A stretch of DNA of 32,000 nt from Ktedonobacterales bacterium (GTDB lineage: Bacteria; Chloroflexota; Ktedonobacteria; Ktedonobacterales; JADMIN01), in assembly GCA_030167145.1 (NCBI GenBank), contig CP126532.1:1740001-1772000 (forward strand), given 5' to 3'. The notes beneath the pieces are model-generated. The model had not been told where the DNA came from, made no database searches, and saw only the letters and a program-made list of their open reading frames with translations. Positions 10,609-32,000 of the stretch are shown here, piece by piece; the first letter of the stretch is position 1, and every line of letters begins with the position of its first letter. The position numbers and the translations under genes were made by a program.

Positions 10609-10877
10609 TTTCAAAGACCACACCAGCGTTTCGCAGATTGTTCAACGCGCTGCCGCCCGACATCCAGGCGCAAGCGCGCGACACTTTTGTGCTGTTCACG
10701 TCGAACCCCAATCATCCCAGCCTGCATTACCAGCGGATCAAGCGGCACAAGGACTGGCTGCGCTCGGTTCGCATTGGCCTCAACTACCGTGCCCTCGCCA
10801 TTGAGCGGGGCAATATTCTGTACTGGATTTGGATCGGCCCCAGAGCCGATTTCGACTATTTCATCAAACACTATTAG
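10605..10877 (+). CDS. RelE/ParE-superfamily toxin-like protein (90 aa)
   Basis: The pattern F-x-x-L...PPDIQAQARDTFVLFTSNPNHPSLHYQRIK...WLRSVRIGLNYRALAIERGNILYWIWIGPRADFDYF matches the RelE/ParE-type family (HPSL, SVRI..YRA, W.WIG...Y). The GTG start overlaps the upstream TGA (GTGA). Confidence 0.7.
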   Translation: MISKTTPAFRRLFNALPPDIQAQARDTFVLFTSNPNHPSLHYQRIKRHKDWLRSVRIGLNYRALAIERGNILYWIWIGPRADFDYFIKHY

Positions 10878-10958
10878 GTGACCTCAATTTTCCTCAGCGC
10901 ACGCCCGCACACACCAGCGTGGTATGGTATGCTGCATGCAGCAGCCTTCGTGGCTCGC

Positions 10959-11002
10959 CCGGACGAGATGCGCGCCGTACCCGGATGGCAAAGACGACGC
11001 GC
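10959..11002 (+). ncRNA. candidate guanidine-III (ykkC-III) riboswitch aptamer
   Basis: CCGGACGAGAUGCGCGCCGUACCCGGAUGGCAAAGACGACGCGC aligns almost position for position with the Thermobifida fusca guanidine-III 41-mer as I recall it (CCGGACGAGGUGCGCCGUACCCGGUCAGGACAAGACGGCGC). P1 is CCGG(10959-62):CCGG(10981-84). The pseudoknot pairs GCGCGCCG(10970-77) with CGACGCGC(10995-11002), with one C-A mismatch. It lies 45 nt upstream of the ATG of a small membrane protein. Possible extended -10 boxes TGGTATGGT/TGGTATGCT are at 10920-10933. Confidence 0.65.
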
Positions 11003-11047
11003 GACCCGGTGATCGTCCTGGCGAACAGACCACGGAGGCATATTGCT

Positions 11048-25086: not shown

Positions 25087-25284
25087 ATGCTCAACACGAC
25101 ACTCCTGCTCGCGCTCCTGCCACTGGTGCTCATTGACCTGGGCATGGTCATCTACTGCATCATTGATCTCTACAAGCCCGAACGGCGCGTGTCCGGCGGC
25201 AACAAAACCGTCTGGCTAATTATCATCCTGCTCATCAGCACCCTTGGCTGGCTGGTCTATTTGCTCGCCGGCAGGAAGGACTAA
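25087..25284 (+). CDS. PLD nuclease N-terminal (PLDc_N) domain small membrane protein
   Basis: 65 aa with two TM helices and the typical LIDLGMVIYCIIDLYKPE...NKTVWLIIILLISTLGWLVYLLAGRK pattern. GGAGGA lies 5 nt upstream of the ATG. Confidence 0.8.
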   Translation: MLNTTLLLALLPLVLIDLGMVIYCIIDLYKPERRVSGGNKTVWLIIILLISTLGWLVYLLAGRKD

Positions 25285-25288
25285 CGCC

Positions 25289-26248
25289 GTGGATACCGCC
25301 GTTTCCTGCCGTGGCCTCACCAAGCGCTACGGCGACGTACTCGCGCTGGATGCCCTCACGCTCGACGTGCCCGTCGGCGCGGTCTACGGCATCCTCGGCC
25401 CCAACGGCGCAGGCAAGACAACGCTGCTGCGCCTGCTCACCGGCCTCGCGCACCCCACCGCTGGCGAGGCGACCGTCGCCGGGCTGAGCGTCACCGCGCA
25501 GGCGCCCGCCGTCCACCAGCGCATCAGCTTCCTCGATCAATCGCCGCAATATTACTCCTGGATGCGCGGGCGCGAACTCATCACCTTTGTCGGCGAACTC
25601 TTCGGGTTGCGCGGCGCGGAACTGCGCACCCGCGTAGACGAAGCGCTGACCCTCACCGGCCTCGCCAGCGCGGCCAACCGCCGTATTAGCGGCTACTCCG
25701 GCGGCATGCGCCAGCGACTCGGCCTCGCCCAGGCGCTCGTCAACCGCCCCGAAGTGCTCTTCCTCGATGAACCCGCCAGCTCGCTCGATCCAGCCGGTCG
25801 CCACGAAATACTGGCGGCCATTGCCAGCATGCGCGGCGCGGCCACAGTCTGCATGTCCACGCACATCCTGGCCGATGTCGAGCGCATCTGCGACACCGTT
25901 GCCATCCTGAATCACGGGCGCCTCCTCGTCTCCGCGTCTGTGGCCGAGCTACAAGAACGCTACGCACAGCCCGCCTTCGAGCTAGAGCTTGACCCCGGCC
26001 AGGGCGACGCCGCCGAGCAGTTCATCGCCGCCGTGCGTGCGTCGCGCTGGGCAGCCGACGTGGTCCGCACCGCGGACATCGTGCGCGTCGTCGCCAGCGA
26101 TGCCGCCGCTGCCGGTCGCGAAATCCTTCCGCTCGTCGCCGCGCACGGCATCCAGGTGCAGCGCTTCGAGCGCCTCCGCCCCAGCCTCGAAGACATCTTC
26201 CTCCGTCTCACCGCCGCGTCAACATCCGAGAAAGTGCAGGCATCCTGA
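25289..26248 (+). CDS. ABC transporter ATP-binding protein
   Basis: Walker A GPNGAGKTT, signature YSGGMRQRL, Walker B VLFLDEPASSLD. The GTG at 25289 is preceded by AGGAAGGA. The longer ATG start would overlap the PLDc_N gene. Confidence 0.9.
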   Translation: MDTAVSCRGLTKRYGDVLALDALTLDVPVGAVYGILGPNGAGKTTLLRLLTGLAHPTAGEATVAGLSVTAQAPAVHQRISFLDQSPQYYSWMRGRELITFVGELFGLRGAELRTRVDEALTLTGLASAANRRISGYSGGMRQRLGLAQALVNRPEVLFLDEPASSLDPAGRHEILAAIASMRGAATVCMSTHILADVERICDTVAILNHGRLLVSASVAELQERYAQPAFELELDPGQGDAAEQFIAAVRASRWAADVVRTADIVRVVASDAAAAGREILPLVAAHGIQVQRFERLRPSLEDIFLRLTAASTSEKVQAS

Positions 26249-27027
26249 TGGACGGCTTCTCGATATTCCTGCGGAAAGAACTGCGCGAAAGCCTGCGCAC
26301 CAACCGCCTGCTGGTCGTCGTGGCGATCTTCGCCATCCTGGGGATCATCTCGCCGCTCGCCGCAAAGTACACCCCAGAGCTACTCAAGACACTTGGCACC
26401 GGTAGCGGCGGCGTCACCATCATTCTGCCCACACCCACCGCGAAAGACGCCATCGCCCAGTTCATCAAGAATGTCGCCGGCACCGGCATCTTCGTGGCCA
26501 TTCTGCTGCCCATGGGGCTGGTCGCCCGCGAAAAGGAGCGCGGCACCGCCGCCTTCGTGCTCACCAAGCCCCTGACGCGCCCCGCCTTCCTCACGGCCAA
26601 ACTCCTCGCGCTGGGGCTGACCCTCACCGTCGGCGTAGCAGTTGCCGCCTTCGCCACGTACTGGTACACCGCGCTGCTCTTCACGCCGATCCCGTTTGGT
26701 GGCTTCCTCGCCGCGACCCTGCTGGTGCTGCTCTCGCTGCTAGTCTACGCCTCGTTCACCTTCCTCGGCAGCACGCTGATGAGCGCGCAACTGCCAGCGG
26801 CGGGCATCGGCCTGGCGGCGTGGCTCGTCATCTCGCTGCTCGCCATCTTCCCAGACATCGCGCAATTCACACCCGCCGGTCTGCTCACTCCCGCCACGCA
26901 GGTGGCCCTTGGCCTCGCCCCACAGCACCTCTGGGTCTCGATTGCCGCCAGCGTCGCCGTGCTCGTCGTCGTGCTGCTCCTCGCCTGGCTCAGCTTCCGC
27001 GGCCAAGAACTCGCCACCAATGCATAA
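26248..27027 (+). CDS. ABC-2 family transporter permease
   Basis: 259 aa with six hydrophobic helices. The start overlaps the ATPase stop (TGATG). Confidence 0.8.
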   Translation: MDGFSIFLRKELRESLRTNRLLVVVAIFAILGIISPLAAKYTPELLKTLGTGSGGVTIILPTPTAKDAIAQFIKNVAGTGIFVAILLPMGLVAREKERGTAAFVLTKPLTRPAFLTAKLLALGLTLTVGVAVAAFATYWYTALLFTPIPFGGFLAATLLVLLSLLVYASFTFLGSTLMSAQLPAAGIGLAAWLVISLLAIFPDIAQFTPAGLLTPATQVALGLAPQHLWVSIAASVAVLVVVLLLAWLSFRGQELATNA

Positions 27028-27093: not shown

Positions 27094-28146
27094 TTACCCG
27101 GCGCTCGCCACCGGCCGTATCTCCTGCGGACGCTCATCCGTCCGCGCGGCGATAGGGCGCGGCGCCAGCTCGCGCAGATACCACGCCGACGCCAGCCGCA
27201 CCCCCTCCGTCAGCGCCACCTGCGGCGCGTAGCCCAGTTCTTCGCGCGCCCGCGCAATCGAGTGGCGATTGTCAGTGCCGAAGAGCTTGACGCCCAGCCG
27301 TGTCAGGACCGGCTGGCGCCGCGCGTGCGTCAGTTGCGCGGTCCGCTCTGCCGCCGCGCCAGCGGCGTAGAGCGCGGCATACGGCGCATGCAGGCGCGGC
27401 GGCGGAGCATGGATCTCCTGCGCGATGGCCCGCAAGAACAACTCCTGCGTCAGCGGCTCATCGTTGGTGATGTTGTAGGCCCGCCCCACCGCGTTCGGAT
27501 GTTCCGCCGCCAACAGCAGCCCCTGCACCACATCGGTCACATACACGAACGGCAAAGCGTTGCGCCCAGAGCCGACGATCAGCCCCGTGCCGCCGCGCAC
27601 CCGGTCGGCCATCCGCGCGAAGTGCAGCCGGTCGCCCGGACCGAAGAACGTGCCAGGGCGGATGATGACGGCGGGCAGCCGGTCACGCGCGATCAGCCGC
27701 TGCACCACCTTATCGCCCTCCGCCTTGGTCAGCGCATATGGCTCATGAAACGGATCGAAGGGGAAATCCTCACGCGCCGGCAAACCCAGATCCATGCCAT
27801 AGACCGTCCACGAGCTGATATGCACGATACGCCGCACGCCCTCATCCAGCGCCGCCTCGCACACATTGCGCGTCCCCGTCACATTAACCGCATAATACTC
27901 GCGTAGCGGACGCCACAGCCCCATCATCCCCGCCAGATGAAAGACCGTATCCACCTTCCGCATCGCCGCAACCAGCGTCTCCGGCTGCCGCACATCCCCG
28001 CGCACAATCGCCACACGCCGCGCTTCCAGGCGGCTGGCATCCTCCTCCGGCAGCACCAGCGCGCGAATCGTGTGCCCGCGCTCTTGCAGCGCGGCGATCA
28101 GATGGCTGCCCAGCAACCCCGACGCCCCAGTAATCAAGACCTGCAT
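27094..28146 (-). CDS. NAD-dependent epimerase/dehydratase family protein (extended SDR)
   Basis: MQVLITGASGLLGSHL Rossmann motif, Y-x3-K in YALTKAEGDK, and IRPGTFFGPGD. The ATG at 28146 has AAGGGAG upstream. Confidence 0.88.
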   Translation of the reverse strand: MQVLITGASGLLGSHLIAALQERGHTIRALVLPEEDASRLEARRVAIVRGDVRQPETLVAAMRKVDTVFHLAGMMGLWRPLREYYAVNVTGTRNVCEAALDEGVRRIVHISSWTVYGMDLGLPAREDFPFDPFHEPYALTKAEGDKVVQRLIARDRLPAVIIRPGTFFGPGDRLHFARMADRVRGGTGLIVGSGRNALPFVYVTDVVQGLLLAAEHPNAVGRAYNITNDEPLTQELFLRAIAQEIHAPPPRLHAPYAALYAAGAAAERTAQLTHARRQPVLTRLGVKLFGTDNRHSIARAREELGYAPQVALTEGVRLASAWYLRELAPRPIAARTDERPQEIRPVASAG

Positions 28147-28175
28147 GACGTATACTCCCTTCTTCACGTGCTCCA

Positions 28176-29204
28176 CTAAACGGCGGGCCGCACAGCCGAC
28201 GCGCTGGCGGGAAGGACGGTGGGTTGCGTGGCGCGATACCAGGCGACGCTGCGCTGAACGCCCTCCGCCAGATCCACCTCTGGCACGAAGCCCAGCTCGC
28301 GCCGCGCCTTGGCGATGATGAAGCGATTCTCCCCGCCCGCCAGTTGCAGGCCATAGCGCATCAGCGGTGGCGGCTGCTTCCGCCCCGTCACATGCCCCAC
28401 GAACTCAGCCGCCGCCCCCAGCGCCAGCGCGGGCCGGTAGGGGATGTGCCGCGTCGGCGGCGCGACACCCAACTCCGCCGCAATCGTCTCGTAATACACC
28501 CGCTGCGTCACCGGCTCATCGTTCACCAGCAGATACGCCTGCCCCACCACTCCTGGCGTCTCGCTCGCCAGCACCACGCCCCGCGCCACATCGCTCACAT
28601 AGATCAGCGGCACAGAATTCTCGCCAGAGCCGATAATCACCATCTTGCCCTCTTCGATCAGCGCCGCGAAGCGCGCAAAGCTGGCGCGGTCGCGTGGACC
28701 ATAGATCCAGCCAGGCCGCACGATCACCACCGGCGCGCGTTGCTCGCGAATCATCCCTTGCAGCAGCCGCTCCCCCGCCACCTTCGACCGGCTATACGGA
28801 TTCGGCTCGTCATGAAACGGGCTGTATTCATCCGCCGGGCCGCGCACATCGTTGCCATGCACGGTAATCGAACTCACATGCACGATCCGCGCGACGCCCG
28901 CAGCCTGAGCCAGCTCCACCAGCGCCCGCGTGCCGCGCACATTGGCGATCTCGTATTCCGCCGCTGGCCCCCACGGCCCCGTCCGCGCCGCGCAATGCAA
29001 CATGCGCCCAACCCCGCGCACCGCCTCCGCCAGCGAAGCATGGTCGCCCATATCGCCCCGACACACCTCCACGTCACGCCAGCCGAAGCGCGTCAGGTCA
29101 TCTCCCGGCCGCACCAGCGCACGCACCGGCTCGCCGCGCGCCACCAGCAGATCCACCACGGCGCTGCCGAGCAATCCGCTCGCCCCCGTGACCAGTGTCA
29201 TCAT
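28176..29204 (-). CDS. NAD-dependent epimerase/dehydratase family protein (extended SDR), tandem paralogue
   Basis: MMTLVTGASGLLGSAV, Y-x3-K in YSRSKVAGER, and VRPGWIYGPRD. It is collinear with the downstream paralogue along its length. GGAGG lies 7 nt upstream of the ATG at 29204. Confidence 0.88.
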   Translation of the reverse strand: MMTLVTGASGLLGSAVVDLLVARGEPVRALVRPGDDLTRFGWRDVEVCRGDMGDHASLAEAVRGVGRMLHCAARTGPWGPAAEYEIANVRGTRALVELAQAAGVARIVHVSSITVHGNDVRGPADEYSPFHDEPNPYSRSKVAGERLLQGMIREQRAPVVIVRPGWIYGPRDRASFARFAALIEEGKMVIIGSGENSVPLIYVSDVARGVVLASETPGVVGQAYLLVNDEPVTQRVYYETIAAELGVAPPTRHIPYRPALALGAAAEFVGHVTGRKQPPPLMRYGLQLAGGENRFIIAKARRELGFVPEVDLAEGVQRSVAWYRATQPTVLPASASAVRPAV

Positions 29205-29625
29205 ACGATTGCCTCCATACGCATCCATCATACGCCTCCATTGCGCGTCAACCATGCATCAGCCGCGCACCTGCCTTCCGTGCATCCATCCTACGCACAG
29301 CGCGGCCCGCCCCCCGCGCGCAAAGGTATCGCTCCCGCCCGCCAATCGTATCGTCTCCGGGGGGTGCGCAGCCTTGCGCGCAGCGCGTGCGGCGCTCAGA
29401 ATGATGGAGTGCGATCACGACGCGCGAGGAGTGATGAGGAGTGATAACGATGGCCGACCCGAAGAGCCACGCGGGCTATGTGGATACAGACTATCTGGCG
29501 CTGGCGGCGGAATTGGCCCAACGGGATAAGCACGCACCTACGCGGCAATGCGCGTGGAGCCGGAGATGCGCATGCAGGTGGCGGGGCGGAAAGTGTCGTA
29601 ACCCTCCACCCCACCGTGCATGCTG

Positions 29626-31095
29626 TCATACCAGCGCCGCGCAGACGATATACATCGTCACAGATTGGCTGCTCGTGGTGTAATTGGTTCCTTGCGTTCT
29701 CCAATGGTCTGCCTGGACTTCCGAGAGGTCGAGCGGTTCATCTTCGAAGAAGCTGGCGCCAAAACCACCCACCAGACTCGTGAATGCGTAACCGCCACCC
29801 GTGACCAGCGGCAACGCAGCGGGGCATTGCAGATCCCCACCCCCAACACCTTTGCTACTCGTACTGGAGTCGTACGCAGTAAGATTGTAGACGCTGCTGA
29901 GAGCTGGTTCCGGTGCATTCAGGTGTTGTGTCGCGCAGAGCGCGTAGCTGGTGATCGTCAACTCCGCGCCTGACGAGGGCGCCATCCTCGTGGCTGCTCT
30001 GGGCATGCCCGGCGGGGGCGGTGGGGGTGGATTATAGACTGATGCGACCCACTTGCCCTGTCCAGGCGCCGAGGATTGCATGATCGGGCTGACCGTCGGA
30101 TCAGCCGGTGCGCCAGTCAGCACATAGCCGCCACCAGTAACGACCCCGCCAGCCGGGCAAATTGCATCCGCCTCACCAACCTGGCTGGTATCAACGGCTA
30201 TATCTTGGCTTGTGGCAAGCGTCTCGCCAACAGATGTGTTGGTAGAAGATTGCAGGCACGTCGCATTTGCGAACACAAACACTGACGGCGGTGTCACTGA
30301 GCCAAACCCAAGCGACTGATTTTCCACGATGACAGTCCACACAGGCTGGCCACTACTATCCTGAACGCTAGGATAATTGGCAGTGAGCTGATAGTTGGCT
30401 CCCTCATCATTGTTGATGTAATATCCACCACCAAGCATCTGCTCTCCCGGCTGGCAACTGATCTGTGAATTGCCGGTTTCGCCGCCATTGATCATCGTGC
30501 CTGTAGCGACAGCGCGCCGTATCACTTTGCCAGTTGGGATAGGCGTCGGCGTCGGCGTGATCGTCGGGCTGGGTGTTGCGGTGAAAGTTGCGGTAGCTTC
30601 CCCACGCGTAGTACGAGGAGGCCCAAACGATAGATGTGGCCCGAACGCCAGAACCGTCACCGTTGTCAGCAGCAAGAGGAAAGCCGCAATGCCAATCGCT
30701 GTCGTCGCGCGGCGGGCTGGCGAACGCGGACGGACTGGAATACGGCGCGCATGGCGGTTGGTCACGGTGAAGGTCGCGCCGTCTATGCGCTCCTCAATCG
30801 CGACTTTGAAATCCTGATCCACGTCGCGAGTCAGATAGCTGGGCTGGCCTGTCTCCGAGAAACGCCACTCCAGTGTAAGCTGCTTCCTCGGCTGACTCGT
30901 TTGTCCCGTGCCAACGCTCACGTTCTCGCCTTCCGGCGCCACACCATAGGTGACGGTGCCGGTGTCGTCGGCTTGCCAGAAGACCAGGGAGTTCGGCTGA
31001 ATGGTTTCGGGTGGCTCGATAGTGTAGGCAACACCCGTATGAATGACACGCTGTAATGGGTCGCGCAGTTGGTTGTCAAGCTGGATTCTCGCCAT
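29626..31095 (-). CDS. single-pass membrane protein: beta-rich cytoplasmic N-domain, TM, Thr/Pro linker, three Cys-bracketed GGGY repeats
   Basis: GAGGAGG lies upstream of tandem ATGs (31098/31095). The TM helix is AIGIAAFLLLLTTVTVLAF. The linker is TATPSPTITPTPTPIPTG. The three roughly 100-aa repeats each have C-x-x-G-x(3-5)-GGGY ... C: SCQPGEQMLGGGYY...ANATC, ICPAGGVVTGGGYV...YALC and QCPAALPLVTGGGYA...YIVC. No family was recognised. GC is low (32/60 in line 30301-30360). Confidence 0.7.
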   Translation of the reverse strand: MARIQLDNQLRDPLQRVIHTGVAYTIEPPETIQPNSLVFWQADDTGTVTYGVAPEGENVSVGTGQTSQPRKQLTLEWRFSETGQPSYLTRDVDQDFKVAIEERIDGATFTVTNRHARRIPVRPRSPARRATTAIGIAAFLLLLTTVTVLAFGPHLSFGPPRTTRGEATATFTATPSPTITPTPTPIPTGKVIRRAVATGTMINGGETGNSQISCQPGEQMLGGGYYINNDEGANYQLTANYPSVQDSSGQPVWTVIVENQSLGFGSVTPPSVFVFANATCLQSSTNTSVGETLATSQDIAVDTSQVGEADAICPAGGVVTGGGYVLTGAPADPTVSPIMQSSAPGQGKWVASVYNPPPPPPPGMPRAATRMAPSSGAELTITSYALCATQHLNAPEPALSSVYNLTAYDSSTSSKGVGGGDLQCPAALPLVTGGGYAFTSLVGGFGASFFEDEPLDLSEVQADHWRTQGTNYTTSSQSVTMYIVCAALV

Positions 31096-31278
31096 CATCG
31101 CCTCCTCTTGCTGGCCGCACGCGCTAGCGGCAGCCTCGGCTCAGCGGAATACACGATACAGGCCGGTAGAATACCTGGGGCGCGGGGAAAAGTCCTGTGG
31201 CAGGCCACGCTGTATCTGGCTGCGTATCTGGCTACGGCATCCCCACCAGCAGGCTATACCTGGATAAGAACCAGGAAG

Positions 31279-31905
31279 CTAGCGATTCAGCAGGTGCTTG
31301 ACGAAATCGGAGATGATTGGGATGTTCACCCAGGTCGAGGCGGCGAAAAGCGCCGCTACCAGGGCAATCACGCCGGTCACGAACCCCACCACCCGGCGCG
31401 TGGCGTTCCGCATAGAACCCCATGCGCTACGCCGGCTGGGAATGGGCACGTAGCGCGAAACATCCTGCATCACCACCTGCATATCCCTGTTGAAATCAGG
31501 GTCCGGGCGCACAGGGCGGGCATTCTGAAAGACGATCTGGCGCAGGCTGGGAGGAAGTTCACCCACTTTCGGAATCAGCGCGCCCTGCACCATCACCGGA
31601 AGGATGGGAATGCGTTTGGCGATAGCAGTTTCCACTTCCAGCCGTACCATGTCGTTGGGGTCGTCCAGACGTCTGCGCCCTTGATAGTCGGTGATTGTCA
31701 CCCACTGTGGACCAATCACCACCAGCAGAACACTGCACTGCTTCAACGCACCCTCAATAGAGGTGCGAAAATCCGCTGCGCCTGGAATTGTGTCAAGGTC
31801 GCGAAAGACTTGCCGCACGCCAAAAACAGACTTCAGGTACTCATAGATGCGGTCGCAGGTTAGCTGGGAATCGTCGCGCCGGTAGGAAATGAAGATCCTG
31901 CTCAT
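31279..31905 (-). CDS. TIR-domain protein with C-terminal transmembrane anchor
   Basis: MSRIFISYRRDDSQLTCDRIYEYL...CSVLLVVIGPQWVTITDYQGRRRLDDPNDMVRLEVETAIAKRIPILPVMVQGALIP is a classic TIR_2 domain with the conserved Glu (RLEVE). The C-terminal helix is VVGFVTGVIALVAALFAASTWV. The ATG at 31905 is preceded by GGGGAGGTGG. Confidence 0.85.
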   Translation of the reverse strand: MSRIFISYRRDDSQLTCDRIYEYLKSVFGVRQVFRDLDTIPGAADFRTSIEGALKQCSVLLVVIGPQWVTITDYQGRRRLDDPNDMVRLEVETAIAKRIPILPVMVQGALIPKVGELPPSLRQIVFQNARPVRPDPDFNRDMQVVMQDVSRYVPIPSRRSAWGSMRNATRRVVGFVTGVIALVAALFAASTWVNIPIISDFVKHLLNR

Positions 31906-32000
31906 TGGCCACCTCCCCGAGCACGTGTCTCGTAGAGTGATATAACCAACTACTCGCTGCATTCGACTTCCCGTGAATATATGTCGAGATAAGGCTCTGC

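Follow-up and report, generated by a model that had tools for sequence, protein, structure and literature searches.

The 32,000-nt stretch analyzed here (the window) comes from a metagenome-assembled soil genome of the Ktedonobacterales (Chloroflexota), and window coordinates refer to the whole of it. Close to its end lie two genes, one for a small TIR protein with a C-terminal transmembrane (TM) helix (TIR-TM) and the other, downstream, for a membrane protein that combines an N-terminal domain (N-domain) with three Cys-GGG repeats (the partner). From the comparison of related loci, the two genes constitute a conserved two-gene membrane module, restricted to the Ktedonobacterales as far as sampled. 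We propose, as an interpretation that we place just short of probable, that the two proteins are a split transmembrane sensor and, coupled to it, a SARM1-like TIR NADase tethered to the membrane, with a function in defence or programmed cell death. An earlier reading, made from the letters of the window alone (the sequence-only reading), had suggested a surface-sensing TIR pair. That suggestion holds with respect to the co-conservation of the genes and to the predicted placement of the TIR domain and the N-domain inside the cell and the repeats outside, but the link to the TIR protein was found to run through the N-domain and not through the repeats.

The pair was traced from either gene. Ten distinct loci were reached, from the N-domain side (the window, L003, L004, L005, L006-8, L009, and L010) and from the TIR side (L011/12, L013-16, and L017/18), and in nine of them (the window and eight further loci) the TIR-TM gene and the N-domain gene are adjacent. 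Starting from the partner, a TIR_2 gene of 209-213 amino acids (aa) was found immediately upstream and in the same orientation at five other loci: L003 (partner P0084, three Cys-GGG domains), L004 (a metagenome-assembled genome of GTDB Ktedonobacterales; partner without identifier, Ig-like arrays), L005 (P0102, three Cys-GGG domains), L006-8 (P0098, BACON-like repeats), and L009 (P0099, Ig-like arrays). There is no such gene upstream of P0085, the partner with a propeller-like region at L010. Starting from the TIR protein, P0120, P0110, and P0114 each have an N-domain gene, recognized with the N-domain hidden Markov model, downstream of them at L011/12, L013-16, and L017/18. The order is constant, with the TIR gene upstream, both genes co-oriented, and 26-191 bp between them, apart from an inserted gene at one locus. 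Within otherwise unrelated flanks, the pair persists even where the TIRs are only 42% and the N-domains only 27-34% identical, and the pairwise identities of the two proteins are correlated (r = 0.875, 45 locus pairs). A profile of the close N-domain sub-alignment located one GTDB locus and nothing in the JGI metagenome contigs; the plasmid collection contained no N-domain and only distant TIRs.

The sequence-only reading had described an extracytoplasmic repeat sensor next to a TIR effector, but it is not the repeats that tie the partner to the TIR protein. In the two neighborhoods examined of three-repeat proteins that do not have the N-domain (P0002 and P0003), there is no TIR neighbor, and N-domain proteins with other ectodomains do have a TIR gene. 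The conserved element of the partner is therefore the cytoplasmic N-domain, the repeats being one of several interchangeable outer modules. Four kinds of ectodomain were recognized: the triple Cys-GGG type (P0001, P0084, P0086, P0102, and P0104), arrays of Cys-containing Ig-like repeats (P0087-92, P0099, P0100, and P0103), BACON-like repeats (P0098, P0101, and probably P0093), and the propeller-like region of P0085. Both N-domain clades contain both the triple Cys-GGG type and the Ig-like arrays. At L003 and L017 the TIR proteins are 89% identical and the N-domains 56% identical, yet the ectodomains (Cys-GGG and Ig-like, respectively) are unrelated. The ectodomains have therefore been exchanged on a constant TIR/N-domain chassis, and a variable ectodomain on constant TIR and N-domain sequences is what one would expect if a constant signaling module carried a recognition module that diversifies. 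L011 and L012, both from sample ERZ25039557, have TIR and N-domain sequences that are 100% identical and the same upstream rhodanese gene, and their downstream parts differ or are truncated; different strains, a duplicate from the assembly, or a variable ectodomain region could account for this.

The TIR protein passed the gathering score of Pfam TIR_2 (PF13676): over residues 23-144 of the 227-aa open reading frame (ORF) it reached 42.7 bits, where 28 are required (E = 9.1e-11). With a profile of 12 orthologues, the best relative of solved structure was the TIR domain of SARM1 (E = 2e-4, profile positions 3-124); the single sequence had no match in the PDB, and SARM1 was found only with the family profile. 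In the profile alignment, E90 of the 208-aa protein is opposite the glutamate of the HKEIV segment of SARM1, which we take to be the catalytic E642. The orthologues are highly conserved, and by the kept position of this glutamate the TIR is predicted to be of the SARM1-like NADase type. An Arg-flanked hydrophobic helix and a short tail follow the TIR domain, and the protein is thus predicted to be tail-anchored with the TIR domain in the cytoplasm; the TIR_2 domain, the conserved Glu, and the single C-terminal TM helix that had been recognized earlier are supported by the Pfam score, the orthologue alignment, and hydropathy. Conservation of the extracytoplasmic tail suggests a specific partner within the membrane. 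The full TIR-TM architecture was found in approximately 20 clusters of a collection of 5.8 billion proteins, with identities of 53-62% (42% for P0126), and more than 1000 further proteins in that collection share only the TIR domain and have other C-termini. TIR relatives elsewhere (P0133, P0136, P0142, and others, approximately 50% identical over 150 aa) carry at the C-terminus a YeaQ/YmgE-type TM segment (PF04226), TPR, or SUMF1. Since close relatives in other lineages have different C-terminal fusions, membrane tethering has arisen more than once in the broader TIR clade.

The N-domain belongs to a rare family. An exhaustive phmmer search of 1.84 billion representative proteins returned only 21 relatives, in all of which the domain is at the extreme N-terminus. 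The sequence-only reading had described a beta-rich cytoplasmic domain of about 130 aa, followed by a TM helix and a Thr/Pro linker, and could not assign the domain to a family. The domain was found to comprise 117 aa, and the AlphaFold2 (AF2) model (pLDDT 86.6) is all-beta with eight strands. With Foldseek a fold could then be proposed: the model matched Cry34Ab1 (4jox, E = 1.3e-4, probability 1.00) with TM-scores of 0.63 (query) and 0.69 (target), and further matches with probability 1.00 were obtained to ostreolysin A, RahU, FraC, and equinatoxin (including 6myi/6myj and 6zc1), with E values up to 6e-3. The predicted fold of the N-domain is thus aegerolysin/actinoporin-like. The N-domain sequence gave no match in Pfam, including PF06355, at E values up to 10, its profile found nothing among the PDB sequences, and neither the whole partner nor its N-domain or repeats had a match in Pfam, NCBIfam, PADLOC, or PHROGs.

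In every full-length member of the N-domain family, the domain is followed by a basic stretch and then a TM helix. The partner has no signal peptide, the basic stretch is a positive-inside signal, and the Cys pairs are exclusively external; for these reasons, the N-domain is predicted to be inside and the repeats outside (N-in/C-out). An alternative start after the N-domain, which would yield a simple signal-anchored protein such as P0002 or P0003, was considered. It was ruled out because the GC pattern is that of coding sequence, AGGAGG is located ahead of the start, and the N-domain family is conserved; the codons of the 117 N-terminal residues have GC1, GC2, and GC3 values of 0.64, 0.48, and 0.69, a coding pattern like that of the TIR gene. 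RsgI-type anti-sigma factors also combine a cytoplasmic constant domain, a TM helix, and interchangeable extracellular sensor modules. The architectural logic of the partner is the same, but there is no homology, and RsgI works with a sigma factor where the partner is paired with a TIR protein.

The constant part of the partner is the N-domain, predicted to be held against the inner face of the membrane by the Arg/Pro-rich tether. In the mechanism that we propose, the ectodomain would bind a ligand outside the cell, for example a phage or a surface structure of foreign or self origin, and ligand-driven clustering or a conformational change would be relayed to the N-domain by way of the TM helix. 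The N-domain would then contact the co-embedded TIR-TM, through TM/tail contacts together with N-domain/TIR contacts, and thereby release or nucleate oligomerization of the TIR domain. The activated TIR would cleave NAD+, and either its depletion or a signal derived from ADP-ribose (ADPR) would lead to arrest or death of the cell. The pair would in effect amount to a Toll-like receptor divided between two chains. Like the Toll-like and IL-1 receptors of animals, it combines a variable domain for recognition outside the cell with one TM helix and with a membrane-located TIR in the cytoplasm. Unlike in those receptors, two genes encode the ectodomain and the TIR as separate polypeptides, the ectodomain chain carries the aegerolysin-like sandwich, LRR and Ig-IL1R domains are absent, and the TIR is of the enzyme type and not the adaptor type. 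In its most far-reaching form, which we consider doubtful, the proposal describes a bacterial outside-in TIR receptor in which a diversifying ectodomain would detect a phage, a foreign cell, or a cue of self or non-self at the cell surface and act via a cytoplasmic aegerolysin-like adaptor on a membrane-tethered, SARM1-like TIR NADase; this would be a two-chain functional analogue of the Toll-like receptor in a multicellular bacterium and the first externally triggered bacterial TIR system.

Several points weigh against a split sensor. The interaction of TIR-TM with its partner and the ligands of the ectodomains are putative, linked inheritance alone could account for the co-divergence of TIR and N-domain, and at L010 the N-domain gene is without a TIR gene. 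Toxins that damage membranes, and not adaptors, are where the aegerolysin/actinoporin fold is typically found, which fits a partner that is itself the effector. To our knowledge, all known bacterial TIR systems, such as Thoeris, CBASS-TIR, SPARTA, and SpbK, sense intracellular cues. Finally, the window locus is not an obvious defence island, having YkuD, glyoxalase, and epimerase genes as neighbors and an RHS gene 4 kb away.

The closest known arrangement is that of the two-gene Thoeris systems (ThsB plus a variable effector, types I-XI), which likewise place a small TIR with a conserved Glu beside a partner that often spans the membrane. Here, unlike in Thoeris, the TIR is tail-anchored, and the partner has a large variable ectodomain and no known nucleotide-sensing domain. 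The TIR scored 37.1 bits against NCBIfam ThcB4, for which the cut-off is 220, and the PADLOC match to ThsB1 (1.4e-9) is partial (residues 22-88), which by the curated cut-offs places the TIR outside Thoeris; SIR2-SLOG, Macro-TM, and other Thoeris effector domains were not found in the partner with Pfam, NCBIfam, or PADLOC. Thoeris suggests the principal alternative to a split sensor, in which the roles are reversed. The membrane TIR would be the sensor and signal generator, and the N-domain protein would be a membrane-damaging effector whose N-domain oligomerizes upon binding to the product of the TIR or to the inner leaflet, the ectodomain being only a wall anchor. Such roles would suit the fold shared with the lipid-binding or pore-forming Cry34Ab1, ostreolysin A, FraC, and RahU, the TM proteins that are common among Thoeris effectors (10.64898/2025.12.03.692087), and the weak, partial matches of the TIR to ThsB models. 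Nevertheless, large and repeatedly swapped ectodomains would be left unexplained, the partner crosses the membrane only once, Pfam detected in it no known signal-binding domain such as SLOG, Macro, or SAVED, the ThcB4 score of 37 bits is far under the cut-off, and the likeness to aegerolysins is at the level of fold only. We therefore regard reversed roles as unlikely.

A role outside conflict is less likely than either of these readings. Ktedonobacteria are filamentous and spore-forming, and the pair could be a lineage-specific envelope or developmental module in which the placement or turnover of a wall- or glycan-binding surface protein is coupled to the TIR as a scaffold or local NAD+/ADPR enzyme. 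Some Cys-GGG homologues are labeled PF27479 "YjdH", and YjdH is listed as a spore-coat protein of B. subtilis (PMC8005191); the window neighbors are wall-related (YkuD L,D-transpeptidase-type proteins and sugar epimerases), and the pair was not found in the plasmid collection and has no PHROG match. On the other hand, the neighbors differ between loci, several paralogous pairs within a sample and ectodomains that are quickly replaced are features typically met in genes for conflict or recognition, the Glu at the catalytic position is strictly kept, and the PF27479 label is marked weak wherever its strength is stated, all of which make an envelope role improbable. That the two genes are neighbors by chance and functionally unlinked would accord with a 183-bp spacer in which the promoter and terminator scan gave no evidence for an operon, and with the N-domain gene at L010 that is without a TIR neighbor; this is very hard to reconcile with the same gene order in nine of ten distinct loci that otherwise differ in their flanks, even at the low TIR and N-domain identities given above, and we consider it exceedingly improbable.

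The remaining comparisons set the pair apart from characterized proteins. The alignment with SARM1/TIR-1 covers most of the TIR domain, including the catalytic Glu motif, but the match is weak (E = 2e-4); ARM and SAM domains are absent from the window protein, in which a tail anchor in the membrane stands where SARM1 has SAM-driven octamerization. Aegerolysins (Cry34Ab1, ostreolysin A, and RahU; PF06355) and actinoporins (FraC and equinatoxin II) resemble the N-domain in fold only; they are soluble, secreted, and act on membranes from the outside, in contrast to the cytoplasmic, TM-fused N-domain, and no gene for an MACPF protein, the partner of aegerolysins, was seen at any locus. The TIR itself is a member of TIR_2, and what appears to be new is its pairing, as TIR-TM, with an N-domain-TM protein of a new family. 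In the literature, we found no report of a TIR with an aegerolysin-like partner or of a tail-anchored TIR pair in Ktedonobacteria, an absence that is no proof of novelty. Kaur et al. 2020 describe a "membrane-associated two-gene system", but this consists of EACC1 plus a caspase and is a different system.

The module links a TIR of enzyme type to a protein in which only the extracellular part changes rapidly. If the pair does signal, the principle of the Toll-like receptor, surface recognition coupled to TIR, would extend to bacteria and would be tied to filamentous multicellular lineages, in which programmed cell death systems are enriched. If it is only an envelope module, its significance would be modest. 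Two uncharacterized modules are defined in either case: a cytoplasmic, membrane-tethered aegerolysin-like domain, in a setting that is unexpected for a fold otherwise known from secreted pore-forming toxins, and the Cys-GGG beta domain. The positions of the features are collected in Table 1.

Table 1. Features of the TIR-TM/partner pair and of two genes that recur beside it. Positions are those of the window unless a related locus is named.
Feature	Position	Strand	Remarks
TIR-TM gene	31279..31905	-	208 aa plus stop; NCBI OJF49_001655; ORF extendable to ATG at 31962
TIR domain, predicted cytoplasmic	31456..31905	-	residues 1-150; SARM1-like; Pfam TIR_2 and family-profile match to SARM1
Glu90 codon (RLEVE), predicted catalytic Glu	31636..31638	-	aligned to Glu of SARM1 HKEIV; invariant in 12 orthologues
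C-terminal TM helix of TIR protein	31330..31404	-	hydropathy; preceded by Arg residues; putative tail anchor
Extracytoplasmic 16-aa tail VNIPIISDFVKHLLNR	31282..31329	-	conserved across orthologues, including an invariant Pro
Intergenic spacer	31096..31278	-	183 bp; AGGAGG ahead of partner start
Partner gene	29626..31095	-	489 aa plus stop; NCBI OJF49_001654; N-domain, TM helix, linker, three Cys-GGG domains
N-domain, predicted cytoplasmic	30745..31095	-	residues 1-117; predicted eight-stranded beta-sandwich, aegerolysin/actinoporin-like; rare family
Arg/Pro-rich juxtamembrane stretch RIPVRPRSPARRATT	30700..30744	-	positive-inside signal; common to all full-length family members
Single TM helix AIGIAAFLLLLTTVTVLAFGP	30637..30699	-	hydropathy; family comparison
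Thr/Pro-rich linker, predicted extracytoplasmic	30529..30618	-	sequence
Cys-GGG domain 1	30244..30528	-	Cys215-Cys281 (490-aa numbering); independent E value (i-E) 5.8e-15 against profile built without the query; AF2
Cys-GGG domain 2	29923..30231	-	PPPPPPP insertion at 30010-30030
Cys-GGG domain 3	29629..29898	-	ends at the C-terminus
Secreted protein gene, ~206 aa	L004 6460-7092; L003 204-821; L006 3497-4117; L013 3304-3912; L017 396-1028		
XRE-HTH/AAA_16/TPR gene	L004 2870-5983; L006 144-3089; L008 3194-5776; L013 1-2964	-	

The two co-oriented minus-strand ORFs that had been noticed earlier were confirmed (31279..31962, 227 aa, and 29626..31098, 490 aa); the contig that carries them is 5.07 Mb long. 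For TIR-TM, a start at M20 (31905) is preferred over the ATG at 31962, because all orthologues have a length similar to 208 aa, GGAGG is located 6 nt upstream, and NCBI calls the same start. For the partner, a start at M2 (31095) is likely, with AGGAGG upstream. No terminator-like site is present in the spacer, and the scan of the pair for promoters and terminators returned nothing. The description of the locus as a low-GC island was correct in that the GC content of the pair genes (0.58-0.59; GC3 0.70 and 0.62) is below that of the neighboring genes (GC 0.63-0.69, GC3 0.76-0.87; 0.68 and 0.80-0.82 for the epimerase genes), but the level is 58-59% and not the value near 52% implied by 31-32 of 60 nt. 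The atypical GC3 fits an acquired accessory module, and in the window genome the pair looks like a relatively recent acquisition; at related loci, its composition is that of the host.

The Cys-GGG repeats were analyzed with a profile built from other proteins only, which recovered each of the three window repeats independently (i-E of 6e-15, 2e-14, and 9e-14). The partner has six Cys residues in all (215/281, 314/388, and 425/486), and each repeat contains C-x-x-G/A-x(3-4)-GGGY, with GGGY at positions 223, 322, and 434; the Cys-bracketed repeats, their GGGY core, and the polyproline run of the second repeat were thus located as previously described. The three tandem copies and a spacing close to 100 aa are also as described, the period being 99-111 aa, but the folded unit is only about 80 aa. 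A nine-unit repeat profile retrieved 80 small proteins with the same domain of approximately 80 aa (consensus A-x-C-P-x-G-x-x-V-T-GGGY ... W ... N ... YAxC). The relatives inspected typically have an N-terminal hydrophobic, signal-like segment, and some have collagen-like stalks. The Cys-GGG repeat is a widespread secreted beta domain. The label PF27479 "YjdH" was precomputed for the homologues P0003 (marked weak), P0004, P0005, P0008, and P0016 and is taken as a lead only; such small secreted Cys-GGG proteins share the domain with the window repeats, as judged by the profile match, but are without the N-domain.

In P0020, P0032, P0040, P0043, and P0058, a single Cys-GGG domain is at the C-terminus of a short collagen-like (Gly-X-Y) protein, a fusion that would imply trimeric display; the PHROG matches of these relatives were rejected as due to the collagen repeat only. 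The multi-copy full-length Cys-GGG proteins seen always contain exactly three copies, which are C-terminal in the N-domain proteins. Repeat 1 of the window protein is 30% and 36% identical to repeat 1 of P0002 and P0003, respectively, versus 16% and 21% to its own repeats 2 and 3. A threefold assembly of the triplet is suggested by the constant number of copies, the likeness specific to repeat position, and the fusions to trimeric collagen. The AF2 model of repeat 1 (pLDDT 93.5) has six strands, and the repeat is predicted to be a small beta-sandwich without an assignable family. The model had no significant match among PDB folds (best E = 0.076, a phage tailspike and an R-pyocin fibre, TM-score <0.5) or in BFVD (best E = 1.3e-3, TM-score 0.52); the weak best matches are tip domains of tail fibres. 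Against the PDB sequences, the repeat profile gave only a non-significant match, to the APC-beta domain of TgPLP1 (E = 0.27, motif CPxGxvvxGG); a beta-prism reading of the repeat was weighed and not adopted.

The sequence-only reading had also noted that further partner genes could lie beyond base 32000. The 8 kb past the window end contain two YkuD, glyoxalase, AHSA1, HTH, and RHS genes, and comparison of the window genome with the related loci revealed no conserved partner within that distance. The two paralogous YkuD (L,D-transpeptidase-type) genes, directly upstream of the window TIR gene (L001 6235-7793), are present at no other locus, and the 880-aa RHS-repeat protein farther upstream (L001 1488-4130) has no counterpart at other loci.

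Other genes recur beside the pair elsewhere. In five distinct related loci, a gene for the secreted protein of approximately 206 aa (QEIDPSYANG...CDPCFHPGLP...HDHVLTG) is located upstream of the TIR gene; it has no Pfam or family match, and the gene is absent from the window and the 8 kb past its end. A divergently transcribed XRE-HTH/AAA_16 (STAND)/TPR gene of approximately 1000 aa accompanies the pair in three distinct loci, with 48-63% identity between them, and might act as a regulator or as a third part of the system; neither the window nor the following 8 kb contains it. Two genes without a family were also observed, one for a 215-aa protein between TIR and partner at L017/18 (L017 3506-4153) and one for a 154-aa hydrophobic protein upstream of TIR at L013-16 (L013 4160-4624).

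Within the window, two tandem paralogues of NAD-dependent epimerase/dehydratase lie directly downstream of the pair (27094-29255, minus strand), and an ABC-2 transporter pair was found at 25244-27027 (plus strand). These genes have a host-typical GC3 and are not kept beside the pair elsewhere. A Guanidine-III riboswitch (RF01763) was detected at 10938-11003 on the plus strand, with 42.7 bits against the Rfam gathering score of 36 (E = 7.5e-6), inside or just upstream of plus-strand ORFs that start near 10829 and 11380.

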